Below, one piece after another: positions 3,072-39,017 of a stretch of 64,000 nt of DNA; the first letter of the stretch is position 1; each line of letters opens with the position of its first letter. The position numbers and the translations under genes are program-made. Under the pieces are notes generated by a model. The model was not told the DNA's origin, did no database searches, and was given only the letters and a program-made list of their open reading frames with translations. The DNA comes from Amphiscolops sp. MND2022 (taxonomy: Eukaryota). The stretch lies in contig OZ076409.1 in the NCBI GenBank assembly GCA_964187785.1, positions 16,618,001 to 16,682,000 of the forward strand, read 5' to 3'.

Positions 3072-3676
3072 TTTTTGTCAGAAATGTGGTTTAACTTCGG
3101 TGACAGTTTTGCAAAAGGGGTCAAATTGAAAAGATAGCAAAAAACGGACAACGCCATTAGAAAGAGCGTCCAAAAAAACCCCCATGCTGAAATTTTCGCC
3201 GCCATCACTTGAATTTTCATTGAGTTATGTCATTTTTACTATTTTCACAAAATGTGGTTTAACTTCGGTGACAGTTTTGCAAAAGGGGTCAAAATGAACA
3301 GATAGCAAAAAACGGACAACGGCATTGGAAAGAGGGCCCAAAATTACCCCTAAAACGTGTTTTTCACACTCCTGAGTCGACTTTTGATAATACATGGAAT
3401 TTCATTTTTAAGCTTACTAATTTATGCTTTTCAGCATACATTTTCGTAATAGAGTCAAAATTTTGCTTTCTCACAATTTTTCTGGAATATTTTTGTTTCA
3501 TCAGATGTCAATAACTTGAAACGTCGTCTTTTCATGAGAATTTCTCCTCAAAACAAGTTGTTGGCTGGTAATGGTAAGTCCGTACCGCAGATAGGAGTCT
3601 CGCGCTCCAAAAATTGACTCTTTGCTTTTAGCCTAATTGTTGTGATAAACTTATTAAATAGGTAAGTATTCCAACC

Positions 3677-3789
3677 TCGGAATATTTCTTGCCTGTTTGA
3701 GGTGTGAATCACACATACTTATCAATAGGGCCCAAAAGCCAGTAACCAAAAACCAGTAACCAATAACCAACCTGTACTTACTGTTTGAA
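3677..3789 (+). mobile_element. 113-bp non-coding insertion at the SL splice donor (mini-element, variant 2)
   Basis: 17-bp duplication AGGTAAGTATTCCAACC (3660-3676, 3790-3806). Confidence 0.8.
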
Positions 3790-3987
3790 AGGTAAGTATT
3801 CCAACCCTATTGATAAGTTTTATTTGAAAGCAGACTGCGAAAGTGGTCTGCTGCCCAATTTTTCTAACAAGGAATAAGCTAGTCTGCACTAACTTAAAAG
3901 TTACGCGTATTTTGACCGAGAAAATTTTCGTATCATTGTACGTAATTTTGTTGTTAAGCATATAAAGCTATTGATTTTACAATGATC

Positions 3988-4106
3988 GGCTACGACCATA
4001 CCATGTTGAATGCACCGGTTCTCGTCCGATCACCGAAGTTAAACAACATAGGGCCTGGTTAGTACTTGGATGGGAGACCGCTTGGGAACACCAGGTGTTG
4101 TAGCCT
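3988..4106 (+). rRNA. 5S rRNA
   Basis: Copy of 129-247. Confidence 0.98.
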
Positions 4107-4665
4107 TTTTTGTCAGAAATGTGGTTTAACTTCGGTGACAGTTTTGCAAAAGGGGTCAAATTGAAAAGATAGCAAAAAACGGACGACGCCATTAGAAAGA
4201 GCGTCCAAAAAAACCCCCATGCTGAAATTTTCGCCGCCATCACTTGAATTTTCATTGAGTTATGTCATTTTTACTATTTTCACAAAATGTGGTTTAACTT
4301 CGGTGACAGTTTTGCAAAAGGGGTCAAAATGAACAGATAGCAAAAAACGGACAACGGCATTGGAAAGAGGGCCCAAAATTACCCCTAAAACGTGTTTTTC
4401 ACACTCCTGAGTCGACTTTTGATAATACATGGAATTTCATTTTTAAGCTTACTAATTTATGCTTTTCAGCATACATTTTCGTAATAGAGTCAAAATTTTG
4501 CTTTCTCACAATTTTTCTGGAATATTTTTGTTTCATCAGATGTCAATAACTTGAAACGTCGTCTTTTCATGAGAATTTCTCCTCAAAACAAGTTGTTGGC
4601 TGGTAATGGTAAGTCCGTACCGCAGATAGGAGTCTCGCGCTCCAAAAATTGACTCTTTGCTTTTA

Positions 4666-4779
4666 GCCTAATTGTTGTGATAAACTTATTAAATAGGTAA
4701 GTATTCCAACCCTATTGATAAGTTTTATTTGAAAGCAGACTGCGAAAGTGGTCTGCTGCCCAATTTTTTGAACAAGGAA
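4666..4779 (+). ncRNA. Putative SL RNA, uninterrupted
   Basis: Copy of 807-920. Confidence 0.85.
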
Positions 4780-6492: not shown

Positions 6493-9024
6493 GAGAAAGT
6501 GAAAGAAATACTAGAAACATCTAAAGTCGCATCCGAAAAATTTGGGAACATTGTGTCTTGTCATGATATCTTTAAAGCGAAAACAAGAGATCAACTAAAA
6601 TACCTTAGTGCTACAAGCAAAAAGATGCTAGTGAAACAAAAAGAAAAAATTCAGATGGATATTGAAAAACTTGAAGAAAATTGTTCTAAGGGAAATTGTT
6701 CTGACCAACAGATCAAACAGAACTTAGAGCACCTGACATGCCTCAAAAATAATCTTCAATTGATCAAAAATGAAGAATCTGAAAATTCATTTCAACAAAT
6801 CAAAAACTTCTTTAGGGAAGCCAATGATGGAAACACAAAAAATATCAAATGCTTAGCGAAAGCCTCAAGCTTAGCTAAGGATATCAAAAAGATTGAAAAA
6901 CAAGATGGATCATTCACAGAAGATCCTGACGAAATTTTAAATGAATTCAAATCTTTTTATGAGAAATTTAGCCAACCAAAATGGAAACCAACAGAAACAT
7001 CCTCGAAATCTCAGGATAAATTCATTGAAAAGTTTTTTAAACAAAAAAGGAAAAGCATTGAAAACATTGAACAATTGTTCAAAGAAACGTTGGAGGACCC
7101 CGACAACGAAATCACAGTATATGAAGTTGAAAAAGCTATCTCTAAACTGAACTCAAACAGTGCTCCTGGATCCGATGGACTTACAAGTCAATTATACCAA
7201 AACCACAAAAACTTTTTTGCCCCGTATCTTTCAAATCTATTTAATAAAATCAATGAAAATGGAGAAGTTCCGGACTCATTTAAACATGCAATCATCAAAG
7301 TAATTCCTAAGAAAAATAATTCACTGAAGGTATCCGAATTTCGGCCAATTAGTCTCATTAATACGGATCAAAAAATTCTTTCTCATGTTCTAGCAGAAAG
7401 ACTCAAACCTATTTTATCAGTATTAATTGGTAATCATCAAAACGCTCATTTACCAAATAGAAATATACATATTGCCATACAAAAAATTCAGCATTACGCC
7501 CATGAAACTACTCGTAGTCAATCACTTATCGCTATTGACTTCAGTAAAGCTTTCGACTGTGTAGAGCGTAGCTTTTTACAAAAACTGATTGAAAAATGTC
7601 CAATCGATAAGTTTACTCAAGAAATGATTTTACTTACGTACAAGGATACTTATGCTTTCATTGGAATGAAAAATGGAATTTCCACAAAATTCAAAATAGA
7701 TAGAGGGGTGAGACAAGGCTGTCCTCTCTCAGCATTGATTTTCAATATTTGTCTTGAACCTCTTCTACAAAGAATTCAAAAATCAAAATACATAAAATCA
7801 AAACAACAAACAAAATGTATTGCCTACGCAGATGATATAACGATCAGCCTCTACAACAAATCTCTTCGGAAGCTATTGATTATTCTGGATCATTTTCACG
7901 AAATAGCAGGCTTAGAAGTTAATTTAGCCAAAACTGAAATCCTTTCGAAAGCGGACAAATTATTTGTATCGGAAAAACTAACAAGAGTTACCACAACAAA
8001 AATTCTTGGAGTTTACATTTCGCTGAATAAAACTCTCAAAAAAGAAACCAAGAACGCAATAACGAATGCTTTTAACTCAACAGAAAAGTTCATACTAAAA
8101 AATAGTTCGTTCCGTGCGAGAGCTAGAAATATTGAGACTTTTATCTACTCGAAATTAATTCATCATCTGAGACACGAAAATTTGTATAAAAAATTTCTTC
8201 GAAAAGTTCAATCGAAAATAATAGATGTTTTCTGGCTGTACAAAAAACACAATGTTAAAAAAAAAATTCTTGAGCTACCAATTGAAGAGGGCGGAGTAAA
8301 CCTCAAGAACTTCTCCAAATACTACCTAACTGCCAAGATTATGAACTTGAAGTTCCTAGCGGTTAACCCAAAGGAGAGAAAATACATACAAGAATTAAAG
8401 AAATCAAAATTTTTTTCAGAATTAGAAAAACACTTCGAAAAACAACACATTGAAATCCTAGAACTGAACCCAGAAGAACTTATAATCCAACATCATTTCA
8501 CTACGCTTAATATAACAAAAGAGACAACTTCGAAAGAAATTTATACTTTTTTGAACAACTCCTCAATAAACGTCCCACCGCCTCTAAAAACTGAAGTTAC
8601 TGCAACAAAACAAAATATAGCACCCGAAATTTTGAACTCAGTTACAAAGAACATCTGGAAAAACAAAAAACTCACTTCGTTTGATAAAAACTATCTTTAC
8701 TGCTTCCTAATGAATTCGTATCTAGATAAACAAGACAAGTGGCTTAAAAATCTTGTTCTCCAACCACTATGTTTCGCATGTGAAGCAGAATTTGAAACAT
8801 GGGACCATTTAATGTTTTCTTGTAAAAATTTGAAAACGTTAACATTGAAGTTGAACGTTTTTTCATGGAAGGAAATATGGCTTGATCGAAGTTGTCTCTC
8901 TCAAAAACTCCTTGTAGCAATAATGCTCTCGTCGTGGACAGAATCAATTGGAGACTACTTAAAATATTTTCTGGAACGTATGAAAGTAATACTAATACCA
9001 GTTGCAAATCTATCTGATAATTGA
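6493..9024 (+). CDS. Partial ORF2 (RT plus C-terminal CCHC zinc finger), N-terminally truncated but uninterrupted
   Basis: APGSDG, RPISLIN, IDFSKAFD, GVRQGCPLS, YADD, CFACEAEFETWDHLMFSC; begins just after the point where the EN domain ends in family B. Confidence 0.92.
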   Translation, partial: EKVKEILETSKVASEKFGNIVSCHDIFKAKTRDQLKYLSATSKKMLVKQKEKIQMDIEKLEENCSKGNCSDQQIKQNLEHLTCLKNNLQLIKNEESENSFQQIKNFFREANDGNTKNIKCLAKASSLAKDIKKIEKQDGSFTEDPDEILNEFKSFYEKFSQPKWKPTETSSKSQDKFIEKFFKQKRKSIENIEQLFKETLEDPDNEITVYEVEKAISKLNSNSAPGSDGLTSQLYQNHKNFFAPYLSNLFNKINENGEVPDSFKHAIIKVIPKKNNSLKVSEFRPISLINTDQKILSHVLAERLKPILSVLIGNHQNAHLPNRNIHIAIQKIQHYAHETTRSQSLIAIDFSKAFDCVERSFLQKLIEKCPIDKFTQEMILLTYKDTYAFIGMKNGISTKFKIDRGVRQGCPLSALIFNICLEPLLQRIQKSKYIKSKQQTKCIAYADDITISLYNKSLRKLLIILDHFHEIAGLEVNLAKTEILSKADKLFVSEKLTRVTTTKILGVYISLNKTLKKETKNAITNAFNSTEKFILKNSSFRARARNIETFIYSKLIHHLRHENLYKKFLRKVQSKIIDVFWLYKKHNVKKKILELPIEEGGVNLKNFSKYYLTAKIMNLKFLAVNPKERKYIQELKKSKFFSELEKHFEKQHIEILELNPEELIIQHHFTTLNITKETTSKEIYTFLNNSSINVPPPLKTEVTATKQNIAPEILNSVTKNIWKNKKLTSFDKNYLYCFLMNSYLDKQDKWLKNLVLQPLCFACEAEFETWDHLMFSCKNLKTLTLKLNVFSWKEIWLDRSCLSQKLLVAIMLSSWTESIGDYLKYFLERMKVILIPVANLSDN

Positions 9025-9115
9025 TGATATGATGCAATTCTGATCTAATGAATTCCAGATTGATCTTTTGTAAAAAAAAGTGTTGATATTATTCATGATT
9101 AATTGAATTTTTGAA
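6493..9115 (+). mobile_element. Family A non-LTR retrotransposon (L1/Tx1-like), 5'-truncated, in SL exon
   Basis: 18-bp TSD AGCCTAATTGTTGTGATA (6475-6492, 9116-9133); carries an RT reading frame lacking the endonuclease. Confidence 0.93.
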
Positions 9116-13082: not shown

Positions 13083-13678
13083 TTTTTGTCAGAAATGTGG
13101 TTTAACTTCGGTGACAGTTTTGCAAAAGGGGTCAAATTGAAAAGATAGCAAAAAACGGACAACGCCATTAGAAAGAGCGTCCAAAAAAACCCCCATGCTG
13201 AAATTTTCGCCGCCATCACTTGAATTTTCATTGAGTTATGTCATTTTTACTATTTTCACAAAATGTGGTTTAACTTCGGTGACAGTTTTGCAAAAGGGGT
13301 CAAAATGAACAGATAGCAAAAAACGGACAACGGCATTGGAAAGAGGGCCCAAAATTACCCCTAAAACGTGTTTTTCACACTCCTGAGTCTAATACATGGA
13401 ATTTCATTTTTAAGCTTACTAATTTATGCTTTTCAGCATACATTTTCGTAATAGAGTCAAAATTTTGCTTTCTCACAATTTTTCTGGAATATTTTTGTTT
13501 CATCAGATGTCAATAACTTGAAACGTCGTCTTTTCATGAGAATTTCTCCTCAAAACAAGTTGTTGGCTGGTAATGGTAAGTCCGTACCGCAGATAGGAGT
13601 CTCGCGCTCCAAAAATTGACTCTTTGCTTTTAGCCTAATTGTTGTGATAAACTTATTAAATAGGTAAGTATTCCAACC

Positions 13679-13791
13679 TCGGAATATTTCTTGCCTGTTT
13701 GAGGTGTTAATCACACATACTTATCAATAGGGCCCAAAAGCCAGTAACCAAAAACCAGTAACCAATAACCAACCTGTACTTACTGTTTGAA
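13679..13791 (+). mobile_element. 113-bp mini-element at the SL splice donor (variant 2)
   Basis: 17-bp duplication 13662-13678 / 13792-13808; nearly identical to 3677-3789. Confidence 0.8.
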
Positions 13792-13989
13792 AGGTAAGTA
13801 TTCCAACCCTATTGATAAGTTTTATTTGAAAGCAGACTGCGAAAGTGGTCTGCTGCCCATTTTTTTGAACAAGGAACAAGCTAGTCTGCACTAACTTAAA
13901 AGTTACGCGTATTTTGACCGAGAAAATTTTCGTATCATTGTACGTAATTTTGTTGTTAAGCATATAAAGCTATTGATTTTACAATGATC

Positions 13990-15589: not shown

Positions 15590-17571
15590 CGGCGTTACTC
15601 TGTCAGCCTGCAAACTTCGTTTGCACAGCGCCATCTTGCAAATTTTGCAGCAAAAGTTGCAAAAGTAATGACTAATTTGAACACGAGTGAGCTTGATCAA
15701 CATCATAATGAAAATGTTGAGCAAAATTGTTACAAAAATGCAGTTATTTCCTCGTCGAAATCGAACTCAAATATGGACAAATTACCAATTATTATCAACT
15801 TTGCCTTACCACTGACATCTGAAATGTTCAAAAACAGCAAATTACTGGATTCAATGTTTGTGGAAGCTGTTATGGCCGTCAAAAACCGACTTATCTCCAA
15901 TGAAATTACCATCTTCAAAACTACAATTTTACGCAACAAAGGCAATTTGAAGTGTATTACTGTGATCATTCCTTACAAACTTGAAAATGCAGCTTCCTCT
16001 CTTATTCACGAGGGCATTACTCTTCGCAATCGGAAAATACGGCCTTATTCTGTCAAATATTCCAACCCGAACAACAATGTCTATCCAAAAAGATTACCAA
16101 TATCTTTCCGAAACCTACCACACTTTCTGACGGATGAGGATATTTTGAGTAGCTGTGGTCTTCAAAACTTCAAATTTAGTAGCAAAATTTCTCATCAACA
16201 ACGACGACTTCCTGATAGCAGCCTTTTTTATACAGGAGAGGCAAGAATTACAGTTTTAATTGACAATGAGAATGAGGAAAGTTTACTACAAAACTGGGCC
16301 AATAATGCATATGACAAAATGTTTAGTTCCAGTGGCATTTTTTTCAAATGTTGCTGTATCCCACTCCTCGAATGCTCTTTATGCGTCAATGAGAACCTTC
16401 CCAGTGCTCATCAACAATCAAGATGCCCAAAACAACTATCAGACGAACAGCAAATACAGAAAAACAGTGAATCTCAGAACCAAAAGTTAACAACTGACTA
16501 CGTTATGGAAACTGCAGAAACAGAGCCAATGTCTAATGAACCTGAACTGTCAGATTCAGATGATGCTGAACCAATCTCAAAGGCGCCAAAGCAGACCGAT
16601 GATGGTACTGAAACCGAATGCAATAACAACGTGGCAGAAACTGAACAACCATGCATTAACAACTCAAAGAAAGATACCAATCCTATGCAAAAACCTAAAC
16701 TAATACATCGCTCAACTGAATGGGAATCCTCAACAGACCTTGCCCGAAATCAAGCAGATGACCAACAGTCAACGGCAAAGCATGGATATCATGAATACCC
16801 ATTCTTTTTGGAAAAGAAACAAAACAAAATACTGGCACCCGAAACTATTTTCAACGAAATACCTCCTATAAAAGAACATGTGATCAAAACCCAACAAACT
16901 TCTGGCTACATCAATACACTAGACAAGGAAAAGAAAATTCAAAGGACCTTTTCACTCGTACAACCACTGAAGAAAGAAAAACTCGAAGATCTTTTATCTG
17001 AATCAAACTGGAAACATTCTGACTCTAACACTATTTTAACTTCTCTTTATGAATTTTACTCATTGATCCGGAAGTTTGATCCATTCTATGATGCTACAAA
17101 CCACCAAATTTACACTATTAATCTGCAGAATAAAATTGTACAAGTTTTCACTGCAGTTGAAAACTTATACAATGAAAACAAAAACTAAACTGAAAAATTT
17201 CGGACCTTTTTGACTGGAACTTTAAAGTTCTAAATCTCTACAATACCATCATCAATCAACCCAATTCCCAATTCTTTTCGAGCACTAGTTGTTCGCAACC
17301 TGTATGCAAAAAACGGGTTTTGAGAACAAACTCCTTCCAGGAGCAAACATCTTTTTTTTCATACATTCTCCAAACTACATTATACTAACTTCATACCAAA
17401 AAAAAACATTCCCATTTTGGCGCTTTCTCAAAAATGCCATAACCAAGCATCTTCATCTACATACTTCTGCTTTTTCAACACTTCAGTTACTCATATACTC
17501 ATTTTATACATATACCTTAGACTTCATTACTTTTTACTTGTAAATTCTCAGTTATTAATATAGTCTTCAAA
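15590..17571 (+). mobile_element. Family C ORF1-only non-autonomous retroelement, copy C1, in SL exon
   Basis: 18-bp TSD (15572-15589, 17572-17589); single ORF, no RT; last 25 nt identical to family B. Confidence 0.9.
15668..17188 (+). CDS. ORF1/gag-like protein, 506 aa: RRM-like region, CCHC knuckle, acidic linker, uncharacterised C-terminal domain
   Basis: YPKRLPISFRNLP...YTGEARITV and CSLC...HQQSRC align by eye with family B ORF1; first ATG at 15668 (the track GTG start lies in the TSD). Confidence 0.85.
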   Translation: MTNLNTSELDQHHNENVEQNCYKNAVISSSKSNSNMDKLPIIINFALPLTSEMFKNSKLLDSMFVEAVMAVKNRLISNEITIFKTTILRNKGNLKCITVIIPYKLENAASSLIHEGITLRNRKIRPYSVKYSNPNNNVYPKRLPISFRNLPHFLTDEDILSSCGLQNFKFSSKISHQQRRLPDSSLFYTGEARITVLIDNENEESLLQNWANNAYDKMFSSSGIFFKCCCIPLLECSLCVNENLPSAHQQSRCPKQLSDEQQIQKNSESQNQKLTTDYVMETAETEPMSNEPELSDSDDAEPISKAPKQTDDGTETECNNNVAETEQPCINNSKKDTNPMQKPKLIHRSTEWESSTDLARNQADDQQSTAKHGYHEYPFFLEKKQNKILAPETIFNEIPPIKEHVIKTQQTSGYINTLDKEKKIQRTFSLVQPLKKEKLEDLLSESNWKHSDSNTILTSLYEFYSLIRKFDPFYDATNHQIYTINLQNKIVQVFTAVENLYNENKN

Positions 17572-18494: not shown

Positions 18495-20480
18495 CGGCGT
18501 TACTCTGTCAGCCTGCAAACTTTGTTTGCACAGCGCCATCTTGCAAATTTTGCAGCAAAAGTTGCAAAAGTAATGACTAATTTGAACACGAGTGAGCTTG
18601 ATCAACATCATAATGAAAATGTTGAGCAAAATTGTTACAAAAATGCAGTTATTTCCTTGTCGAAATCGAACTCAAATATGGACAAATTACCAATTATTAT
18701 CAACTTTGCCTTACCACTGACATCTGAAATGTTCAAAAACAGCAAATTACTGGATTCAATGTTTGTGGAAGCTGTTATGGCTGTCAAAAACCGACTTAAC
18801 TCCAATGAAATTACCATCTTCAAAACTACAATTTTACGCAACAAAGGCAATTTGAAGTGTATTACTGTGATCATTCCTTACAAACTTGAAAATGCAGCTT
18901 CCTCTCTTATTCACGAGGGCATTACTCTTCGCAATCGGAAAATACGGCCTTATTCTGTCAATTATTCCAACCCAAACAACAATGTCTATCCAAAAAGATT
19001 ACCAATATCTTTCCGAAACCTACCACACTTTCTGACGGATGAGGATATTTTGAGTAGCTGTGGTCTTCAAAACTTCAAATTTAGTAGCAAAATTTTTCAT
19101 CAACAACGACGACTTCCTGATAGCAGCCTTTTTTATACAGGAGAGGCAAGAATTACAGTTTTAATTGACAATGAGAATGAGGAAAGTTTACTACAAAACT
19201 GGGCCAATAATGCATATGACAAAATGTTTAGTTCCAGTGGCATTTTTTTCAAATGTTGCTGTATCCCACTCCTCGAATGCTCTTTATGCGTCAATGAGAA
19301 CCTTCCCAGTGCTCATCAACAATCAAGATGCCCAAAACAACTATCAGACGAACAGCAAATACAGAAAAACAGTGAATCTCAGAACCAGAAGTTAACAAAT
19401 GACTATGTTATGGAAACTGCAGAAACAGAGCCAATGTCTAATGAACCTGAACTGTCAGATTCAGATGATGCTGAACCAATCTCAAAGGCGCCAAAGCAGA
19501 CCGATGATGGTACTGAAACCGAATGCAATAACAACGTGGCAGAAACTGAACAACCATGCATTAACAACTCAAAGAAAGATACCCATCCTATGCAAAAACC
19601 TGTATTAATGCATCGCTCAACTGAATGGAAATCCTCAACAGACCTTGCCCGAAATCAAGCAGATGACCAACAGTCAACGGCAAAGCATGGATATCATGAA
19701 TACCCATTCTTTTTGGAAAAGAAACAAAACAAAATACTGGCACCCGAAACTATTTTCAACGAAATACCTCCTATAAAAGAACATGTGATCAAAACCCAAC
19801 AAACTTCTGGCTACATCAATACACTAGACAAGGAAAAGAAAATTCAAAGGACCTTTTCACTCGTACAACCACTGAAGAAAAAAAAACTCGAAGATCTTTT
19901 ATCTGAATCAAACTGGAAACATTCTGACTCTAACACTATTTTAACTTCTCTTTATGAATTTTACCAATTAATCCGGAAGTTTGATCCATTCTATGATGCT
20001 ACAAACCACCAAATTCATACTATTAATCTGGAGAATAAAATTGTACAAGTTTTCACCGCAGTTGAAAACTTATACAATGAAAACAAAAACTAAACTGAAA
20101 AATTTCGGACCTTTTTGACTGCAACTTTAAAGTTCTAAATCTCTACAATACCATCATCAATCAACCCAATTCCCAATTCTTTTCGAGCACTAGTTGTTCG
20201 CAACCTGTATGCAAAAAACGGGTTTTGAAAACAAACTCCTTCCAGGAGCAAACATCTTTTTTTCATAAATTCTCCAAACTACATTATACTAACTTCATAC
20301 CTAAAAAAAAAAAAACATTCCCATTTTGGCACTTTCTCAAAAATGCCATAACCAAGCATCTTCATCTACATACTTCAGCTTTTTCAACACTTCAGTTACT
20401 CATATACTCATTTTATACCTATACCTTAGACTTCATTACTTTTTACTTGTAAATTCTCAGTTATTAATATAGTCTTCAAA
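18495..20480 (+). mobile_element. Family C element, copy C2
   Basis: TSD 18477-18494 / 20481-20498. Confidence 0.9.
18573..20093 (+). CDS. Family C ORF1-like protein, 506 aa, intact
   Basis: Near-identical to 15668-17188. Confidence 0.85.
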   Translation: MTNLNTSELDQHHNENVEQNCYKNAVISLSKSNSNMDKLPIIINFALPLTSEMFKNSKLLDSMFVEAVMAVKNRLNSNEITIFKTTILRNKGNLKCITVIIPYKLENAASSLIHEGITLRNRKIRPYSVNYSNPNNNVYPKRLPISFRNLPHFLTDEDILSSCGLQNFKFSSKIFHQQRRLPDSSLFYTGEARITVLIDNENEESLLQNWANNAYDKMFSSSGIFFKCCCIPLLECSLCVNENLPSAHQQSRCPKQLSDEQQIQKNSESQNQKLTNDYVMETAETEPMSNEPELSDSDDAEPISKAPKQTDDGTETECNNNVAETEQPCINNSKKDTHPMQKPVLMHRSTEWKSSTDLARNQADDQQSTAKHGYHEYPFFLEKKQNKILAPETIFNEIPPIKEHVIKTQQTSGYINTLDKEKKIQRTFSLVQPLKKKKLEDLLSESNWKHSDSNTILTSLYEFYQLIRKFDPFYDATNHQIHTINLENKIVQVFTAVENLYNENKN

Positions 20481-20827: not shown

Positions 20828-21790
20828 TTTTTGTCAGAAATGTGGTTTAACTTCGGTGACAGTTTTGCAAAAGGGGTCAAATTGAAAAGATAGCAAAAAA
20901 CGGACAACGCCATTAGAAAGAGCGTCCAAAAAAACCCCCATGCTGAAATTTTCGCCGCCATCACTTGAATTTTCATTGAGTTATGTCATTTTTACTATTT
21001 TCACAAAATGTGGTTTAACTTCGGTGACAGTTTTGCAAAAGGGGTCAAAATGAACAGATAGCAAAAAACGGACAACGGCATTGGAAAGAGGGCCCAAAAT
21101 TACCCCTAAAACGTGTTTTTCACACTCCTGAGTCGACTTTTGATAATACATGTAATTTCATTTTTAAGCTTACTAATTTATGCTTTTCAGCATACATTTT
21201 CGTAATAGAGTCAAAATTTTGCTTTCTCACAATTTTTCTGGAATATTTTTGTTTCATCAGATGTCAATAACTTGAAACGTCGTCTTTTCATGAGAATTTC
21301 TCCTCAAAACAAGTTGTTGGCTGGTAATGGTAAGTCCGTACCGCAGATAGGAGTCTCGCGCTCCAAAAATTGACTCTTTGCTTTTAGCCTAATTGTTGTG
21401 ATTTTACCCGAGGCGAACCGCTGCCAAATTTTAAAATCACCTCTCTCTGAGCTGTTTCAGCTCAAAAAGCACAAATTAATTTCGATTTGTCTTTCTCTGC
21501 TTTTCTGAACCGACTTTCTTTTACTTTACTTTTCCGAAATTTAACCAAATTTCGTTATTGAAATGAAACAAAAAGCGTTCAAAAAAACGCCAAATTCGCA
21601 AGAAAAATTCCCAAAATACTCTCCAACTGTTACTTTCGAAGGCAAAGCCTCCATCAGCGAGAATAACAATAGGGCCAACCCGACCAATTCTACTTCAATA
21701 AAAAAAAACAAAATGCGAAAAACTTTGCATCAGAATTCCTAAAACACAACGAAACTTCCAAAGCTTCATACAACAACAAATTACCATTAA

Positions 21791-23580
21791 ATGACTCTAC
21801 TTCTCAAGTCTTCAACGCAACTGGTCCCACAAGCCCTGTTTACGGCCACGGAACCAGTATTACTGCAGAAAAAAATTACATGCATTATCTCAACGATGAA
21901 ATTCCGATAACGTATGCTGGGTCCCAAAACTCGGAGGAAAATCCTAATTATTCAACACCCACTTGCAGTAGAGATGAAAATGAAGTATCAGCAGGAGCAT
22001 CTTAACAAGCCCAAGCCTCCAACATACCAACAATGCAAACCCAGTGTCTACAAAACCCAAAATTCCCAGATCAATGCAACATACCACATCCGAAAAGTCA
22101 AACTGAGAATTATATGTCGACAAGGCAAAATCAGCTATCTTATATTTCTTCTCTGCCGGACTTCACCAGTCTGTATCAACAGGAAGAGCAATGTTCTGGT
22201 GACCGCTACGTCTCTCCCATTGAGAGAAAGCGCCACTACAGCCATGATGAAATGGCTGCTGCAAATTCAGAATCGTTAAACAATAACTTCTCAAATCTTG
22301 GCGTCCCAGCGCAACAAGGACAAACAAGAGCAAACAATGCTTACAATGACTCAAGCCTCAACAATGCCACTCAGCGTACGCTGGAAGAAGCGGTAAACAA
22401 CGCAATAGAAGTCACAAATCCTTCTGCCGAAGCAATGTATACCGACACAATAAGAGGACAAACAAACCCAAAACCGACTACTAACAACATGGCCTCATAT
22501 TCTCAGGTAACATGCCTCAGAAATCCAACCGCTACTGTTACTAACAAAATACACAAACTCAGAATTGTTCCACCTCTGAGAAAAGAGCATTTTACAAATG
22601 CCTCAACAATGCAACAGGAAATAGATAAAGCGTACCAGGAGATCCTTGTGGCGTTTTCACCCAACATAAGGCACCTAATAACAATCTCGAGAACTATCGT
22701 CAAGGTGTCCGAGAAAAACTATCAAGTACTGCAAGTGATAGCACCAAAAGAAGCCGAAAATGATATTAATAACATGAAGCTATCCGGTCTTACCATAATG
22801 GGACGGACTGTGTTTCCCTCCTCAGAAGATTTTTGGCAAGTCCGACAATCCTTTTACCCCAAACCCGCTACAATAAGAAGTAACAATGTTCCAGTAATTT
22901 GCACCGACGAAGAGTTGTTCAAAACTCTTGAAATTCCCGCCTTCCTGGAATACGGTGCCATAGTGAGAGAAACCAAACATACAGGTATCGGTCCAGTCCA
23001 TACAGGCAAAGTTGCGATCAAAATAAAAATCAACTCTGCAGAGGAAGAAACAGAACTCCGCAAATGGTCATTCAACAAGGCCTTTGCTAACCCAGCAGAA
23101 TGGATGGGAATAGACATACCTACCAGCATCCCGATGCTCCATACTTGCAAAAGATGCAAAGAGGAAAAACGGCCACAATTCCGGGGCCATGAGGAAGAGT
23201 GGTGCCGAATTCGCAGGTCCACCCCACACGAACCCCAAAATGAGAACCAACCTTCGCTCAATAGGAACCCAGAACTGCCTACAGCTCCTTCTGAGCTGAC
23301 TAAACAAACCTCAGCCTCGACAACAGTCAACGAAGAAACGATGGAAAATGAGAACCACAACCATCAAGAAGACACGGTGATCCACAACCAGGATGAGGAA
23401 TGGCAAACGGTGGGCAAACAACAAGGACAAAAGCGTCCCCAGAAGGTTCCTTCAGAAACATCCTCGAGCTCAAGGAACAGCAGCCCGACCAAAGCTCCAA
23501 AACCGAAACAACCAGCACTACAAAACAACAGTTGCCCCAATGTACCAGACGATCAGCAAAAACGGTATGATGGCTCTTGA
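21791..23580 (+). pseudogene. Family B ORF1 (gag-like, RRM-like plus CCHC); 5' part has a frameshift and a stop relative to B2, open from 22033
   Basis: YPKPATIRSNNVP, HTGKVAIKI, CKRCKEEKRPQFRGHEEEWC; A-run difference near 21870 and TAA near 22003 versus B2. Confidence 0.8.
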
Positions 23581-26500
23581 TATTCTATGTGTGAACATCA
23601 GAGGCCTTGCTAATCCAGCAAAGCTTCTCGAGATCTGTGAAAAAAGGCAGATCCTAGGCAAAAATAATGAAACATGCATTGTAATACAAGAAACTAAGAT
23701 AATTAAAATGAAGGAGGAACATGAAAAAATACTAAAAAAATACAAATTAAAAAGTGAGGAAGTACCTGCTATAGGAGGGTCCGGGGGGCTACTAACAATC
23801 ATACCAGAATTTTTGCAATACCAAGTTCTTCTGAAAGGTACAAGTTGCCTTGCACTCAAGATTAGCAAAAACAACCAAGAAACGATTCTGATCAATACCT
23901 ATATCAATCCAAAAGACTTCAGAGCTGAAAACTTCTGCGCATGTTTAGAAGAATTAGGCTTAGAACCCACCCATAGAATTCTTATAGCAGGTGATTTCAA
24001 TGCAATAGACAACGAAGATATTGGAAAAAACGATGCCTTGAATAACTCAATCAAAAATAATGATATCAGAATCTTACGCTATAAACGCATAATACCTTAT
24101 ATGAACTCACTGCTTTTGAAGGACCAAGTTAAAGAACAAAATACCGTTCAACCGACTCACTACGATAAGAGAACAAAGAAAAATAGCAGAATTGACTATA
24201 TTTTTAGCAACTGCATAAGTGACGAGCAAAAAATCGAATTGTTCAACATTACAAAAACTGATCACAAATGTCTTTTTCTACGAACCCACGAAGAAAGGTT
24301 AGACTTGAAGCAATCGCAATGGAAACTTAACGATACGGTACTTGATGACAGATTCCGAATCAACGAAATTTTAAAAAATGCAATCCCAAAACTTAAGAAC
24401 AAGCTGTCACTTGCAGAAACCTACGATAATTTTAAAGCCAACGTAAGAGATGACCTCCGACAGCTTTGTATTGAAAAACGAAACATTGAAAAAGCCTACG
24501 AAAGGCAACTTATACGTGACATTAAAGACCTAGAACATGAACGGTTTGTATGCAACAACAAACCAGAAGAAATAAATCGAATCCAAAAAGAGATTGACAG
24601 AAAAAATGATGAAATCGATGCTCTGATCAACAACCAAAATAGAATGCAATTAAATAAAATCAAAAATTTCTACAATGAAGTGAACGAAGGTAACCCAAAA
24701 CAGGTTAAACAACTTGTTTCCGCTCTTAGACCGAGTACAAGAATTAACAAACTGAAAAAAGACAATGGCGAAACAATCAACTCTCAAAATGATATTGTAG
24801 AAGAGATAACTACTTACTACCAAAATCTTTATGAGAGTCATGCTCCTCCTAGTCCAAACAACTATGAGCCCACATTACAACAAACAACTTACCTACAAAA
24901 ATATTTTAAAAGAATTGAGAACAAGCTCTCTACCTATGATAATACGAACATAAATGAAGACGAGATCACAGAATTTGAAGTAGAACAGGCGATTTTGAAA
25001 CTGAATAACAAGAGCGCTCCCGGACCCGACGGTCTCACATCTAATCTATACCAAACTTATAAAAACTTCTTTATTCCCCTATTAACCGACCTATTCAATG
25101 ACATTATACGGAAAAAACAAGTTCCTCCTTCATTTAATCTAGCAATCATCAAACTCATTCCAAAGAAATACGCCTCTGAAAAAGTCTCCGACCTCAGACC
25201 AATAAGTCTAATCAATTCAGACCAAAAAATCTTGTCACATGTCCTGACTAAAAGAATCAAACCTCTCTTCGATCATGTCATAGGAAATCATCAATATGCT
25301 CATCTCACTGACAGAAATATTCACACAGCCCTAACTAAAATCCGCCAATACTCAACAAGCTTGAGAAGCAAAGAAGCCCTGTGTGCTCTAGACTTCTCCA
25401 AAGCGTTTGATTGTGTTGACAGGGGTTTTCTCATGGCTATTCTTAAATATCTTCCAATTCCAGAAACAACAATCAATCTCATTGAAGCTCTCTATCAAAA
25501 TACGATCTCAATCATTGACGTCAACTCCGAGTTTTCTAAACCAATTAAAATTACAAGAGGAGTCCGTCAAGGATGTCCACTATCAGCAATCCTTTTTATC
25601 CTAGTGATAGAGCCCCTGCTGGACAAAATCCAAAGATCAAGAAAAATCAAATCTACTAACCATCAAAAATCGATCGCTTTTGCCGATGACATCACAGTAT
25701 CCATTAAAACGAAGTCAATAAACAAACTTATCAAGTTTCTTGATGATTTTGAAATGATAGCAGGGCTTGCAATAAACTATGATAAATCAGAAATGCTGAC
25801 CAAAAACCACAACATCTTCTTCAGAAACCCGGAAAAGACATTGAAAACGGTCAATCGAGTCAAAGTTCTTGGAGTTTTTATCACAACTAAATACGGAATA
25901 GACTGTAACACAAAAAACAAAATAGAAACAATTTTAAGTCAGGCAACAAAATTCACCTCAAAAAATATGAGCTTCCGAGCACGGGCAATCAATTTAGAGA
26001 CCTTCATTCTTTCCAAAATAACCTATCAATTGAGACACTTTACCAAAAACAAAACCTATATGAAAAAACTCAATGCTAAAATGGTTGATGGCTTTTGGAA
26101 TCATAAAAAACATAACGTCAATCAAGAAATTGCGCATTTGGAACGCAAAGAAGGTGGTATAGGCCTAAAAAAACATCAATCGAAGAGTACTAGTCGCAAA
26201 ACTCATGAATCTAAAAGTATCCCTTCTGGGTCCCAACAACCATGATAATTACAATGACTTCAAAGGCTCAAAATGGTTCAAACAAATTGAGAGAGATTTG
26301 AAGAACGAGAATATCGATTTTGTAGAAATCACAAACGAAATAATGAGAATTCAATATCTTTCCCAAACTATTGAAATCAACAACAATACAAAATCAAAAG
26401 ACATCCATCAAATATTACGAAACCCAACAATTAGTAATGCATGCCTTCCTCGCATAACAAAAACTGCTACGAAACAAAATATTTCCCCCGATCGCATTTT

Positions 26501-26882
26501 GTGCGTTCTGAAGTCACTCTGGAATAACACGAAATTGAAGTCATTCGACAAAAACTACATTTATTGCTTCTTAATGGATGCTTACCTTGACAAGGAAGAA
26601 AAATGGGAAAAACTTCTAACTCCTCATCCACTTTGTTTCCAATGTGGTGCGGAATTCGAAACATACTCTCACCTGATGTTTGATTGCTCTCTAACCCAAG
26701 ACCTAAAAAAGAGCCTAAAATACCAAAACTGGCAACATATATGGACTGACCGAACCGGGAAATCCCAAAAACTGTTAGTTGCAATGCTTCTATCCTCTTG
26801 GACCGAGGAAGAAGGACCTTATTTAAGTTTTCTCAGATCTAAACTAACTAACCACAACCCTAAGCAGGTACCAATAAACTAA
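23567..26882 (+). pseudogene. Family B ORF2 (APE endonuclease, RT, CCHC), ~1104 aa consensus; one +1 frameshift in an A run near 26170
   Basis: EN motifs VNIRGL, IQET, AGDFN, SRIDYIF, TDH; RT motifs APGPDG, LDFSKAFD, GVRQGCPLS, FADD; CFQCGAEFETYSHLMFDC. Confidence 0.92.
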
Positions 26883-27254
26883 AACACAACCTTCCTTAAG
26901 TTCACACATAGATAGATGTATTCATTTGTCTATTGTTTTTGTTATTACTATGTACAATTTTTTTTATATATGAGTTTTTTTTTTGTTTTAGTTTTGTAAT
27001 ACTCAGTTATTAATATAGTCTTCAAAAGCCTAATTGTTGTGATAAACTTATTAAATAGGTAAGTATTCCAACCCTATTGATAAGTTTTATTTGAAAGCAG
27101 ACTGCGAAAGTGGTCTGCTGCCCAATTTTTTGAACAAGGAACAAGCTAGTCTGCACTAACTTAAAAGTTACGCGTATTTTGACCGAGAAAATTTTCGTAT
27201 CATTGTACGTAATTTTGTTGTTAAGCATATAAAGCTATTGATTTTACAATGATC

Positions 27255-27949: not shown

Positions 27950-29338
27950 GCAAAATTTCTCATCAACAACGACGACTGCCTGATAGCAGCCTTTTTTATA
28001 CAGGAGAGGCAAGAATTACAGTTTTAATTGACAATGAGAATGAGGAAAGTTTACTACAAAACTGGGCCAATAATGCATATGACAAAATGTTTAGTTCCAG
28101 TGGCATTTTTTTCAAATGTTGCTGTATCCCACTCCTCGAATGCTCTTTATGCGTCAATGAGAACCTTCCCAGTGCTCATCAACAATCAAGATGCCCAAAA
28201 CAACTATCAGACGAACAGCAAATACAGAAAAACAGTGAATCTCAGAACCAAAAGTTAACAACTGACTACGTTATGGAAACTGCAGAAACAGAGCCAATGT
28301 CTAATGAACCTGAACTGTCAGATTCAGATGATGCTGAACCAATCTCAAAGGCGCCAAAGCAGACCGATGATGGTACTGAAACCGAATGCAATAACAACGT
28401 GGCAGAAACTGAACAACCATGCATTAACAACTCAAAGAAAGATACCAATCCTATGCAAAAACCTAAACTAATACATCGCTCAACTGAATGGGAATCCTCA
28501 ACAGACCTTGCCCGAAATCAAGCAGATGACCAACAGTCAACGGCAAAGCATGGATATCATGAATACCCATTCTTTTTGGAAAAGAAACAAAACAAAATAC
28601 TGGCACCCGAAACTATTTTCAACGAAATACCTCCTATAAAAGAACATGTGATCAAAACTCAACAAACTTCTGGATACATCAATACACAAGACAAGGAAAA
28701 GAAAATTCAAAGGACATTTTCACTAGTACAACCACTGAAGAAAGAAAAACTCGAAGATCTTTTATCTGAATCAAACTGGAAACATTCTGACTCTAACACT
28801 ATTTTAACTTCTCTTTATGAATTTTACTCATTGATCCGGAAGTTTGATCCATTCTATGATGCTACAAACCACCAAATTTACACTATTAATCTGCAGAATA
28901 AAATTGTACAAGTTTTCACTGCAGTTGAAAACTTATACAATGAAAACAAAAACTAAACTGAAAAATTTCGGACCTTTTTGACTGGAACTTTAAAGTTCTA
29001 AATCTCTACAATACCATCATCAATCAACCCAATTCCCAATTCTTTTCGAGCACTAGTTGTTCGCAACCTGTTTGCAAAAAACGGGTTTTGAGAACAAACT
29101 CCTTCCAGGAGCAAACATCTTTTTTTCATACATTCTCCAAACTACATTATACTAACTTCATACCAAAAAAAAACATTCCCATTTTGGCGCTTTCTCAAAA
29201 ATGCCATAACCAAGCATCTTCATCTACATACTTCTGCTTTTTCAACACTTCAGTTACTCATACACTCATTTTATACATATACCTTAGACTTCATTACTTT
29301 TTACTTGTAAATTCTCAGTTATTAATATAGTCTTCAAA
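27950..29338 (+). mobile_element. Family C element, copy C3, 5'-truncated by ~590 bp
   Basis: TSD 27932-27949 / 29339-29356; starts mid-ORF at GCAAAATTTCTCATC; frame open to 28956. Confidence 0.9.
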
Positions 29339-30261: not shown

Positions 30262-32244
30262 CGGCGTTACTCTGTCAGCCTGCAAACTTTGTTTGCACAG
30301 CGCCATCTTCCAAATTTTGCAGCAAAAGTTGCAAAAGTAATGACTAATTTGAACACGAGTGAGCTTGATCAACATCATAATGAAAATGTTGAGCAAAATT
30401 GTTACAAAAATGCAGTTATTTCCTTGTCGAAATCGAATTCAAATATGGACAAATTACCAATTATTATCAACTTTGCCTTACCACTGACATCTGAAATGTT
30501 CAAAAACAGCAAATTACTGGATTCAATGTTTGTGGAAGCTGTTATGGCCGTCAAAAACCGACTTAACTCCAATGAAATTACCATCTTCAAAACTACAATT
30601 TTACGCAACAAAGGCAATTTGAAGTGTATTACTGTGATCATTCCTTACAAACTTGAAAATGCAGCTTCCTCTCTTATTCACGAGGGCATTACTCTTCGCA
30701 ATCGGAAAATACGGCCTTATTCTGTCAATTATTCCAACCCAAACAACAATGTCTATCCAAAAAGATTACCAATATCTTTCCGAAACCTACCACACTTTCT
30801 GACGGATGAGGATATTTTGAGTAGCTGTGGTCTTCAAAACTTCAAATTTAGTAGCAAAATTTTTCATCAACAACGACGACTTCCTGATAGCAGCCTTTTT
30901 TATACAGGAGAGGCAAGAATTACAGTTTTAATTGACAATGAGAATGAGGAAAGTTTACTACAAAACTGGGCCAATAATGCATATGACAAAATGTTTAGTT
31001 CCAGTGGCATTTTTTTCAAATGTTGCTGTATCCCACTCCTCGAATGCTCTTTATGCGTCAATGAGAACCTTCCCAGTGCTCATCAACAATCAAGATGCCC
31101 AAAACAACTATCAGACGAACAGCAAATACAGAAAAACAGTGAATCTCAGAACCAGACGTTAACAAATGACTATGTTATGGAAACTGCAGAAACAGAGCCA
31201 ATGTCTAATGAACCTGAACTGTCAGATTCAGATGATGCTGAACCAATCTCAAAGGCGCCAAAGCAGACCGATGATGGTACTGAAACCGAATGCAATAACA
31301 ACGTGGCAGAAACTGAACAACCATGCATTAACAACTCAAAGAAAGATACCCATCCTATGCAAAAACCAGTACTAATGCATCGCTCAACTGAATGGAAATC
31401 CTCAACAGACCTTGCCCGAAATCAAGCAGATGACCAACAGTCAACGGCAAAGCATGGATATCATGAATACCCATTCTTTTTGGAAAAGAAACAAAACAAA
31501 ATACTGGCACCCGAAACTATTTTCAACGAAATACCTCCTATAAAAGAACATGTGATCAAAACCCAACAAACTTCTGGCTACATCAATACACTAGACAAGG
31601 AAAAGAAAATTCAAAGGACCTTTTCACTCGTACAACCACTGAAGAAAGAAAAACTCGAAGATCTTTTATCTGAATCAAACTGGAAACATTCTGACTCTAA
31701 CACTATTTTAACTTCTCTTTATGAATTTTACCAATTAATCCGGAAGTTTGATCCATTCTATGATGCTACAAACCACCAAATTTACACTATTAATCTGCAG
31801 AATAAAATTGTACAAGTTTTCACTGCAGTTGAAAACTTATACAATGAAAACAAAAACTAAACTGAAAAATTTCGGACCTTTTTGACTGCAACTTTAAAGT
31901 TCTAAATCTCTACAATACCATCATCAATCAACCCAATTCCCAATTCTTTTCGAGCACTAGTTGTTCGCAACCTGTATGCAAAAAACGGGTTTTGAAAACA
32001 AACTCGTTCCAGGAGCAAACATCTTTTTTTTCATAAATTCTCCAAACTACATTATACTAACTTCATACCTAAAAAAAAACATTCCCATTTTGGCGCTTTC
32101 TCAAAAATGCCATAACCAAGCATCTTCATCTACATACTTCAGCCTTTTCAACACTTCAGTTACTCATATACTCATTTTATACCTATACCTTAGACTTCAT
32201 TACTTTTTACTTGTAAATTCTCAGTTATTAATATAGTCTTCAAA
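30262..32244 (+). mobile_element. Family C element, copy C4
   Basis: TSD 30244-30261 / 32245-32262. Confidence 0.9.
30340..31860 (+). CDS. Family C ORF1-like protein, 506 aa, intact
   Basis: Near-identical to 15668-17188. Confidence 0.85.
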   Translation: MTNLNTSELDQHHNENVEQNCYKNAVISLSKSNSNMDKLPIIINFALPLTSEMFKNSKLLDSMFVEAVMAVKNRLNSNEITIFKTTILRNKGNLKCITVIIPYKLENAASSLIHEGITLRNRKIRPYSVNYSNPNNNVYPKRLPISFRNLPHFLTDEDILSSCGLQNFKFSSKIFHQQRRLPDSSLFYTGEARITVLIDNENEESLLQNWANNAYDKMFSSSGIFFKCCCIPLLECSLCVNENLPSAHQQSRCPKQLSDEQQIQKNSESQNQTLTNDYVMETAETEPMSNEPELSDSDDAEPISKAPKQTDDGTETECNNNVAETEQPCINNSKKDTHPMQKPVLMHRSTEWKSSTDLARNQADDQQSTAKHGYHEYPFFLEKKQNKILAPETIFNEIPPIKEHVIKTQQTSGYINTLDKEKKIQRTFSLVQPLKKEKLEDLLSESNWKHSDSNTILTSLYEFYQLIRKFDPFYDATNHQIYTINLQNKIVQVFTAVENLYNENKN

Positions 32245-32591: not shown

Positions 32592-33553
32592 TTTTTGTCA
32601 GAAATGTGGTTTAACTTCGGTGACAGTTTTGCAAAAGGGGTCAAATTGAAAAGATAGCAAAAAACGGACAACGCCATTAGAAAGAGCGTCCAAAAAAACC
32701 CCCATGCTGAAATTTTTGCCGCCATCACTTGAATTTTCATTGAGTTATGTCATTTTTACTATTTTCACAAAATGTGGTTTAACTTCGGTGACAGTTTTGC
32801 AAAAGGGGTCAAAATGAACAGATAGCAAAAAACGGACAACGGCATTGGAAAGAGGGCCCAAAATTACCCCTAAAACGTGTTTTTCACACTCCTGAGTCGA
32901 CTTTTGATAATACATGGAATTTCATTTTTAAGCTTACTAATTTATGCTTTTCAGCATACATTTTCGTAATAGAGTCAAAATTTTGCTTTCTCACAATTTT
33001 TCTGGAATATTTTTGTTTCATCAGATGTCAATAACTTGAAACGTCGTCTTTTCATGAGAATTTCTCCTCAAAACAAGTTGTTGGCTGGTAATGGTAAGTC
33101 CGTACCGCAGATAGGAGTCTCGCGCTCCAAAAATTGACTCTTTGATTTTAGCCTAATTGTTGTGATTTTACCCGAGGCGAACCGCTGCCAAATTTTAAAA
33201 TCACCTCTCTCTGAGCTGTTTCAGCTCAAAAAGCACAAATTAATTTCGATTTGTCTTTCTCTGCTTTTCTGAACCGACTTTCTTTTACTTTACTTTTCCG
33301 AAATTTAACCAAATTTCGTTATTGAAATGAAACAAAAAGCGTTCAAAAAAACGCCAAATTCGCAAGAAAAATTCCCAAAATACTCTCCAACTGTTACTTT
33401 CGAAGGCAAAGCCTCCATCAGCGAGAATAACAATAGGGCCAACCCGACCAATTCTACTTCAATAAAAAAAACAAAATGCGAAAAACTTTGCATCAGAATT
33501 CCTAAAACACAACGAAACTTCCAAAGCTTCATACAACAACAAATTACCATTAA

Positions 33554-35344
33554 ATGACTCTACTTCTCAAGTCTTCAACGCAACTGGTCCCACAAGCCCT
33601 GTTTACGGCCACGGAACCAGTATTACTGCAGAAAAAAAATTACATGCATTATCTCAACGATGAAATTCCGATAACGTATGCTGGGTCCCAAAACTCGGAG
33701 GAAAATCCTAAATATTCAACACCCACTTGCAGTAGAGATGAAAATGAAGTATCAGCAGGAGCATCTCAACAAGCCCAAGCCTCCAACATACCAACAATGC
33801 AAACCCAGTGTCTACAAAACCCAAAATTCCCAGATCAATGCAACATACCACATCCGAAAAGTCAAACTGAGAATTATATGTCGACAAGGCAAAATCAGCT
33901 ATCTTATATTTCTTCTCTGCCGGACTTCACCAGTCTGTATCAACAGGAAGAGCAATGTTCTGGTGACCGCTACGTCTCTCCCATTGAGAGAAAGCGCCAC
34001 TACAGCCATGATGAAATGGCTGCTGCAAATTCAGAATCGTTAAACAATAACTTCTCAAATCTTGGCGTCCCAGCGCAACAAGGACAAACAAGAGCAAACA
34101 ATGCTTACAATGACTCAAGCCTCAACAATGCCACTCAGCGTACGCTGGAAGAAGCGGTAAACAACGCAATAGAAGTCACAAATCCTTCTGCCGAAGCAAT
34201 GTATACCGACACAATAAGAGGACAAACAAACCCAAAACCGACTACTAACAACATGGCCTCATATTCTCAGGTAACATGCCTCAGAAATCCAACCGCTACT
34301 GTTACTAACAAAATACACAAACTCAGAATTGTTCCACCTCTGAGAAAAGAGCATTTTACAAATGCCTCAACAATGCAACAGGAAATAGATAAAGCGTACC
34401 AGGAGATCCTTGTGGCGTTTTCACCCAACATAAGGCACCTAATAACAATCTCGAGAACTATCGTCAAGGTGTCCGAGAAAAACTATCAAGTACTGCAAGT
34501 GATAGCACCAAAAGAAGCCGAAAATGATATTAATAACATGAAGCTATCCGGTCTTACCATAATGGGACGGACTGTGTTTCCCTCCTCAGAAGATTTTTGG
34601 CAAGTCCGACAATCCTTTTACCCCAAACCCGCTACAATAAGAAGTAACAATGTTCCAGTAATTTGCACCGACGAAGAGTTGTTCAAAACTCTTGAAATTC
34701 CCGCCTTCCTGGAATACGGTGCCATAGTGAGAGAAACCAAACATACAGGTATCGGTCCAGTCCATACAGGCAAAGTTGCGATCAAAATAAAAATCAACTC
34801 TGCAGAGGAATAAAAAGAACTCCGCAAATGGTCATTCAACAAGGCCTTTGCTAACCCAGCAGAATGGATGGGAATAGACATACCTACCAGCATCCCGATG
34901 CTCCATACTTGCAAAAGATGCAAAGAGGAAAAACGGCCACAATTCCGGGGCCATGAGGAAGAGTGGTGCCGAATTCGCAGGTCCACCCCACACGAACCCC
35001 AAAATGAGAACCAACCTTCGCTCAATAGGAACCCAGAACTGCCTACAGCTCCTTCTGAGCTGACTAAACAAACCTCAGCCTCGACAACAGTCAACGAAGA
35101 AACGATGGAAAATGAGAACCACAACCATCAAGAAGACACGGTGATCCACAACCAGGATGAGGAATGGCAAACGGTGGGCAAACAACAAGGACAAAAGCGT
35201 CCCCAGAAGGTTCCTTCAGAAACATCCTCGAGCTCAAGGAACAGCAGCCCGACCAAAGCTCCAAAACCGAAACAACCAGCACTACAAAACAACAGTTGCC
35301 CCAATGTACCAGACGATCAGCAAAAACGGTATGATGGCTCTTGA
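33554..35344 (+). pseudogene. Family B ORF1 (~596 codons) with a premature TAA at 34811-34813
   Basis: GAA in B1 is TAA here; the frame continues to 35344. Confidence 0.8.
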
Positions 35345-38300: not shown

Positions 38301-38646
38301 GAAGTCATTCGACAAAAACTACATTTATTGCTTCTTAATGGATGCTTACCTTGACAAGGAAGAAAAATGGGAAAAACTTCTAACTCCTCATCCACTTTGT
38401 TTCCAATGTGGTGCGGAATTCGAAACATACTCTCACCTGATGTTTGATTGCTCTCTAACCCAAGACCTAAAAAAGAGCCTAAAATACCAAAACTGGGAAC
38501 ATATATGGACTGACCGAACCGGGAAATCCCAAAAACTGTTAGTTGCAATGCTTCTATCCTCTTGGACCGAGGAAGAAGGACCTTATTTAAGTTTTCTCAG
38601 ATCTAAACTAACTAACCACAACCCTAAGCAGGTACCAATAAACTAA
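35331..38646 (+). pseudogene. Family B ORF2 with a frameshift near 35500 and a nonsense codon at 36934-36936
   Basis: Fragments in the ORF track reconstruct the same EN-RT-CCHC protein as B1. Confidence 0.92.
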
Positions 38647-39017
38647 AACACAACCTTCCTTAAGTTCACACATAGATAGATGTATTCATTTGTCTATTGT
38701 TTTTGTTATTACTATGTACAATTTTTTTTATATATGAGTTTTTTTTTGTTTTAGTTTTGTAATACTCAGTTATTAATATAGTCTTCAAAAGCCTAATTGT
38801 TGTGATAAACTTATTAAATAGGTAAGTATTCCAACCCTATTGATAAGTTTTATTTGAAAGCAGACTGCGAAAGTGGTCTGCTGCCCAATTTTTTGAACAA
38901 GGAACAAGCTAGTCTGCACTAACTTAAAAGTTACGCGTATTTTGACCGAGAAAATTTTCGTATCATTGTACGTAATTTTGTTGTTAAGCATATAAAGCTA
39001 TTGATTTTACAATGATC

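Follow-up and report, generated by a model that had tools for sequence, protein, structure and literature searches.

Three of the 23 spliced-leader (SL) gene starts in the window, by which we mean the whole 64,000-nucleotide stretch of Amphiscolops sp. MND2022 DNA that was analysed, carry a mini-insertion of 95 or 113 bp at the SL splice donor, flanked by direct repeats of 14-17 bp. To judge by its sequence, this mini-element is largely a reversed copy of its own target gene, and its predicted fold on the transcribed strand bears marks of selection. The insertion itself is real, while its function and mobility are inferred. We give about even chances to the view that it is a non-autonomous retroposon driven by the SL promoter, in which a hairpin shuts the first of two donors and the read-through RNA is likely copied by an L1/Tx1-type enzyme.

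Mini-insertions in the array of 5S rRNA and SL RNA genes

Over its first 48 kb the window consists of a tandemly repeated 905-bp unit, an array of 5S rRNA and SL RNA genes with a mean difference of 0.56% across 22 units. There are 23 5S rRNA genes in the window (Rfam RF00001), and the 23 SL starts linked to their promoter side comprise 9 that are uninterrupted, 11 with an L1-type insertion and the 3 with the mini-insertion. In the unit of the first variant-2 insertion, the 31-nt SL exon lies at 3631-3661, the SL intron, with a stem-loop and an Sm-like site (3857-3863), at 3792-3870, and the 5S rRNA gene (RF00001) at 3988-4106, all on the forward strand. This unit has four departures from the unit consensus, two of which adjoin the Sm-like site. 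The exon is identical to the SL of the acoel Symsagittifera roscoffensis as given in PMC9911081, and the same exon is found in two metagenome loci, L006 and L007, with other spacers or flanks. The L007 locus is an SL-5S unit without insertion and with a different spacer.

Two other features of the window were recorded. The spacer of each unit holds two 20-nt stretches (window 3084-3103 and 3252-3271) that are 95% complementary to the 5S internal region and form an inverted repeat, I1/I2, inside a 168-bp internal duplication, which makes them another antisense copy of an array gene. On the minus strand, 61729-63385 contains the final two exons of an ENaC/degenerin-type channel gene (about 50% identical to PF00858 homologues).

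The direct repeats of all three mini-insertions, which lie on the forward strand, begin at the AG preceding the donor. Variant 1 (2646-2768) is an insertion of 95 bp at 2660-2754 between 14-bp repeats (2646-2659 and 2755-2768). Variant 2, with an insertion proper of 113 bp at 3677-3789 and an array unit longer by 130 bp, has 17-bp repeats that form a putative target-site duplication; the 5' repeat (3660-3676) contains donor 1 (GT at 3662) and the 3' repeat (3790-3806) contains donor 2 (GT at 3792). The second variant-2 copy (13662-13808, insertion 13679-13791, again with 17-bp repeats) differs from the first by one base (13708) and occupies a unit with other SNPs. The mini-element has neither protein-coding capacity nor a poly(A) tail.

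In variant 1 the mini-element runs from arm 1 through an AC-rich linker to arm 2; variant 2 has arm 3 in addition, between arm 1 and the linker. Arm 1 (2664-2711 in variant 1, 3679-3715 in variant 2) aligns with the reverse complement of SL positions 1-43, and in variant 2 it is antisense to the SL exon and donor apart from A>G changes and a bulge of 3 nt. The 14-nt arm 3 (3717-3730) looks like a later templated switch. The linker of variant 2 (3731-3773) is mostly unpaired and holds a 14-nt tandem repeat (3732-3769). Arm 2 (2739-2753 in variant 1, 3774-3788 in variant 2) is a second antisense copy of the exon/donor junction, aligning with the reverse-complemented SL across it. The motif TGTTTGA, with a background frequency of 5 in 30000 positions, is common to arms 1 and 2; the two arms probably share descent, which is all that we read into the extended pairing of arm 2. 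One stretch of variant 2, GGCCCAAAAGC (window 3724-3740 compared with 4659-4670), is similar to the reverse complement of the bases directly upstream of SL +1, hinting at an antisense copy made on DNA and extending beyond the leader start.

Variants 1 and 2 are identical at 84 of 94 aligned bases, with 23 gap columns, and at 40 of the 3'-most 41 nt. They differ far more than the array units do (0.56%), which suggests old lineages within young units. The two copies of variant 2 are separated by 10 kb and sit in units without common SNPs, and a SNP of one of these units is also present in its uninserted neighbour. Against mobility, gene conversion could also move one insertion between unit haplotypes, and the window holds only three copies.

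Pairing with the target and its bias to the transcribed strand

The initial annotation held that the mini-element is complementary to its own target at up to three places, and all three pairings are present. At its 5' end, GGAATA-TTT-CTTGCCT (3679-3694) pairs with the upstream AGGTAAG-TATTCC (3660-3672), and this pairing is longer than first noted: with 38 predicted pairs in variant 1 it covers all 31 nt of the SL exon, and with 29-30 in variant 2 most of them. At the 3' end, TACTTAC (3775-3781) pairs with the downstream GTAAGTA (3792-3798), and the first 9 nt of arm 2 pair with 3791-3799 over donor 2, forming a 9-bp hairpin in 3/3 copies. The third pairing is that of arm 3, where ACTTATCAATAGGG is the perfect complement of the SL intron arm at 3805-3818 in variant 2 only.

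The whole chimeric transcripts fold at z = -7.09 and -6.32, and 0/200 shuffles folded as well. The duplex of arm 1 with SL RNA was equalled by 0/2000 shuffles for variant 1 and 1/2000 for variant 2, and that of arm 3 by 0/2000. The duplex of arm 2 is weak (74/2000 shuffles equal), and its extended pairing across the junction is energetically ordinary, 836/5000 random tails being as good. The mini-elements pair with SL at -44.5 and -36.0 kcal/mol, compared with -10 to -17 kcal/mol for the 5' ends of five other SL-start insertions.

Variant 1 had been described as keeping the arm 1 pairing with different bases (TGGAGTA-TAT-CTTGCCT, 2664-2680). The pairing is indeed kept, but the different bases are one-sided A/G changes only: in the three-copy alignment, 3 of 35 pairs are changed on one side, all of them U-A versus U.G, and none on both sides. 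With just three sequences, and with the invariant SL gene as the partner arm, the absence of two-sided changes cannot discriminate between a selected structure and a simple fold-back. Because the SL arm does not vary, the strand bias of the one-sided changes is the informative test, and it speaks against simple fold-back.

Compared with a perfect antisense copy, in a register picked after the fold was seen, arm 1 of variant 1 has 13 substitutions, namely 8 A>G, 1 C>T and 4 others that fall in a single internal loop. The 38 predicted pairs include 8 that are not Watson-Crick, all of them G.U, and the 8 substitutions that yield G.U on the transcribed strand compare with 0 on the opposite strand. 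The hairpin reaches -43 kcal/mol on the transcribed strand versus -14 on the other; transcription of the minus strand was rejected, since the fold is far weaker there. When 13 substitutions were sampled from the array's own spectrum (37 SNPs), 0/1000 neutral simulations matched the stability or the strand asymmetry of variant 1. A>G changes account for 8/13 substitutions in variant 1 against 8.8% expected (P 3e-6), or for 7/12 in a flat-scored alignment (P 2e-5), and the strand bias of variant 2 alone is not significant (5/11, P 0.14; 5/10, P 0.10). Since the hairpin folds only on the transcribed strand and no neutral simulation matches it, a neutral fold-back is unlikely, and in the case of variant 1 mostly refuted; selected RNA-level pairing on the transcribed strand is well supported by this modelling for variant 1.

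The mean cost of an A>G change is 0.12 kcal/mol and that of a C>T change 2.14 kcal/mol. With A>G nearly free and C>T costly, selection on RNA structure would explain the ratio between them. In variant 1, 8/16 As are changed, above the drift equilibrium of 18% (P 0.003). Sorted by 5' neighbour, the changed As are 5/7 after T, 2/5 after A, 1/3 after C and 0/1 after G, in agreement with the 5'-neighbour preference order of ADAR. ADAR editing together with reverse transcription is a possible source of the A>G changes; as a necessary cause ADAR was rejected, since structural selection accounts for the A>G to C>T ratio.

Donor accessibility and resident retroelements

The proposal that the fold masks both donors held for donor 1 only. 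The predicted cost of opening positions -2 to +8 is 6.4 kcal/mol in the native SL RNA, 16.0-17.3 at donor 1 and 5.2-5.4 at donor 2, and that of opening +1 to +6 is 3.5, 12.7-12.9 and 4.5-5.2 kcal/mol, respectively. Donor 1 is predicted to be shut, at about 10 kcal/mol above native, but donor 2 opens like the native donor and would be at most weakly shielded. A perfect 10-nt complement binds at -11.7 kcal/mol and, set against these opening costs, would displace hairpin 2 and not hairpin 1. The pairing had also been called U1-like. Such pairing is present, but any antisense copy of AG/GTAAGTAT would have it, so it adds no evidence. The idea that the element rebuilds stem-loop I fits variant 2 but not variant 1, which is without the 14-nt arm.

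Self-cleavage, for which an assay had been suggested, found no support, ribozyme families and motifs being absent from the chimeric transcripts. No Rfam ribozyme was matched at E<=10, where only chance-level matches (snR77, snoMe28S-Cm3227 and folP) appeared, and a loose home-made descriptor of the HDV-like ribozyme gave 0 matches in 2/2 transcripts. The hammerhead core motif is CUGANGA; searched with at most one mismatch on both strands of the two transcripts it gave 0 matches, and with no Rfam match either, a hammerhead or retrozyme was rejected.

All L1-type insertions in the window (11/11) lie at the first base of the SL exon, 29 nt upstream of the mini-element site, and no autonomous element was found at the donor site among the 23 SL starts in the window. 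Target-site duplications of the L1-type insertions are 17-18 bp in 10/10 closed cases, compared with 14, 17 and 17 bp for the mini-elements, and both kinds of duplication begin with AG. The 3' end of the mini-element, TTTGAA+AG, is that of L1-type family A, a likeness of 6 nt plus AG only, with no longer BLAST match in the window, and membership of arm 2 would account for these bases too.

Two 5.6-kb L1/Tx1-like elements (21403-27026 and 33167-38789), 99.7% alike and with ORF1 and a reverse transcriptase (RT), sit at the first base of the SL exon between 17-bp duplications. RT domains were detected in 2 ORFs of the array, and the endonuclease matches are weak (APE-type, E 0.002 and 0.02, below cut-off). 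L1/Tx1 denotes here a resemblance and not a tested clade, because the homologues are mostly unnamed, and no APE-type element specific for SL genes was found in the literature searched. A second RT family, 5'-truncated and at the same SL site (6493-9115), has the 3' end TTTGAA+AG, and over 355 bp its DNA is about 72% identical to that of the 5.6-kb element. Another single-ORF family (388 aa) uses the same site at 42620-44241 and 48071-48657, the latter copy meeting a 200-N gap (48658-48857). The elements of about 2 kb, one of which is 5'-truncated, carry one 542-aa ORF (15590-17571, 18495-20480, 27950-29338, 30262-32244, 39713-41697 and 45165-47147). They have no Pfam match and no RT, and only a 34-nt 3' end is common with the 5.6-kb element; they occupy the same SL site and are likely non-autonomous retroelements with ORF1 alone. 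Because these ORF1-only elements share the 34-nt 3' end with a full-length element, mobilisation in trans is plausible in the array.

A search of metagenomes for the SL pattern gave 9 loci, which were two true SL genes (L006 and L007) without the mini-element and seven unrelated loci. The pattern had 0 matches in prokaryote contigs and 0 in viral contigs, and the 3' junction of the mini-element had 0 exact matches in metagenome contigs. Among 19 sequencing runs listed by a word search, none contained more than 0.20 of the words, which is no evidence of a match. On the L006 contig (reverse strand, up to 983), the 3' end of a related RT element is joined to the identical SL base. SL targeting thus extends beyond this genome.

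Mechanism, known systems and rival explanations

In the retroposon reading that we favour, the antisense arm would arise at a staggered break in the donor, through snap-back or template-switch synthesis, as the position of the hairpin tip at the end of the 5' repeat suggests. Transcription from the SL promoter would yield an RNA of exon, element and intron, in which hairpin 1 would prevent exon donation, and this read-through RNA would stay whole with target sequence on both sides. The bottom strand would be nicked at the T/AG step preceding the donor, with priming on SL intron sequence at the 3' side of the RNA, and annealing of the copied SL exon would produce a fixed 5' junction. A>G changes would be retained since going from U-A to U.G costs almost nothing, and they may be driven by ADAR editing and reverse transcription. 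A point against this reading is that donor 2 is predicted to be no better masked than a native donor, which would leave the transcript open to splicing at that site.

For R2, ribozyme cleavage in the upstream 28S sequence, which puts target sequence on the RNA, has been proposed to lead to uniform 5' junctions (PMC3774820). The two variant-2 copies likewise have a uniform 5' junction, but the mini-element is without a self-cleaving motif and its pairing spans the whole SL exon. The snap-back 5' junctions described for R2 (PMC11371274) also place an inverted copy of neighbouring target DNA at the 5' junction; there it is a one-off by-product, whereas the mini-element appears old, forms two lineages and is G.U-biased. 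By analogy, the mini-element would work most like the R2 and R2/R1 SIDEs of Drosophila rDNA as described in PMC3414825, with a hairpin in the ribozyme's place. Those elements are likewise short, non-coding and located within the transcribed part of a tandem RNA gene; they have autonomous non-LTR elements in the same array and depend on co-transcription, on which the mini-element would also rely; and the R1-site SIDEs have 14-bp duplications (PMC3414825), similar in size to its 14-17 bp. Unlike them, the mini-element lacks an HDV-like ribozyme and a clear 3' end from an autonomous element, targets the SL donor, and has a body of antisense target sequence instead of a deleted parent. Because it has no ribozyme and no same-site autonomous partner in the window, we do not class it as a SIDE.

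SLACS, CZAR and CRE are autonomous SL-targeting elements with a restriction-like endonuclease. NeSL (PMC4640811) inserts into spliced-leader genes as the mini-element does, but is autonomous with a restriction-like endonuclease, whereas the local RT elements give weak APE-type matches. Dada DNA transposons (PMC8869645) resemble the mini-element in targeting multicopy small RNA genes; a Dada element was rejected on its duplications, reported there as 6-7 bp against 14-17 bp here. A SINE was also rejected, there being no tRNA-, 5S- or 7SL-derived head (Rfam E<=10) and the 5' half aligning to antisense SL. No comparable acoel element was found in the open-licence papers searched.

The fold could instead be kept by the host, having begun as a one-off fold-back duplication that was selected as an siRNA precursor or SL regulator and spread by unequal crossover and conversion. 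We consider this unlikely, although it accounts equally well for the RNA-level pairing and the strand bias and requires no donor-site enzyme, of which none is seen in the window. Drosophila hpRNAs yield endo-siRNAs, and an imperfect fold-back from an inverted duplication, as in hpRNA loci, is present here; but its stem is short (29-38 predicted pairs) and interrupted by a bulge and loops. The SL exon is found on about 30% of genes in S. roscoffensis (PMC9911081), and siRNAs against it would, on that figure, hit as many. Moreover, the direct repeats equal those of the resident retroelements in size, and the copies are in the minority and belong to two diverged lineages.

Spliceosomal introns occur in snRNA genes, and the mini-element resembles these as a GT-AG insertion in a spliceosomal RNA whose removal restores that RNA. 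As such an intron, it would be cis-spliced between donor 1 and the AG that precedes donor 2, losing 109 or 130 nt and restoring the SL RNA, and would spread by reverse splicing, with arm 1 gripping a new SL exon in the manner of a group II exon-binding site. Removal at the GT...AG ends does give the exact native sequence, a branch-like CTTAC lies 12 nt from the end, the last 35 nt contain no other AG, and a duplex of free arm 1 and native SL RNA reaches -43.6 (variant 1) and -31.4 (variant 2) kcal/mol. Such ends, however, arise from any duplication across AG/GT, and unlike an snRNA-gene intron the element has a donor predicted to be buried (16-17 kcal/mol), an AAG acceptor without a pyrimidine tract, and 14-17-bp repeats; the branch distance is also short. 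Of the local introns a single end, TTGCAG, was read completely, too few for an acceptor norm. On balance we regard the intron reading as improbable. We would grant no greater likelihood to a trans-splicing parasite of about 100 nt, composed almost entirely of antisense target copies, that would shut the donor in cis, capture SL RNA or DNA across the junction in trans and re-enter by guided reverse splicing or TPRT, the A>G changes recording repeated ADAR editing.

The element might also serve as an extended leader, with donor 1 hidden and donor 2, in an SL-like stem, trans-spliced, so that it rides on mRNA 5' ends as a leader of 140-161 nt. Donor 2 is predicted to open as readily as native, variant 2 rebuilds the helix with the intron arm, and the proposal that SL RNAs are activated through pairing around their own 5' splice site (PMC4041458) counts in its favour. 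Against it, one variant-2 unit is altered beside the Sm-like site, and the scheme provides no way back into the array. A cap-proximal hairpin of -30 to -43 kcal/mol would also likely block translation, and we think this role very improbable. Just as poor are the prospects of a neutral fold-back with tandem duplication and no selected structure, which accounts for the origin of arms 1 and 3, for the 0/35 pairs with two-sided compensation and for the small gain from the extra pairing of arm 2, but not for a stability and asymmetry attained in 0/1000 simulations or for G.U-making changes of 8 versus 0 between the strands of variant 1, and of an assembly artefact, against which the three copies and two variants argue.

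Even if immobile, the mini-element would still make a variant form of the SL gene whose fold has been selected, with no role assigned to it. If the retroposon reading holds and it is mobile, a non-autonomous element can consist of nothing but its own target, and a hairpin, not a ribozyme, suffices to escape the processing of the host gene. Its size of about 100 nt makes it a small construct for studying how an SL-gene parasite evades trans-splicing, and it could show whether retrotransposition fixes ADAR edits in DNA.
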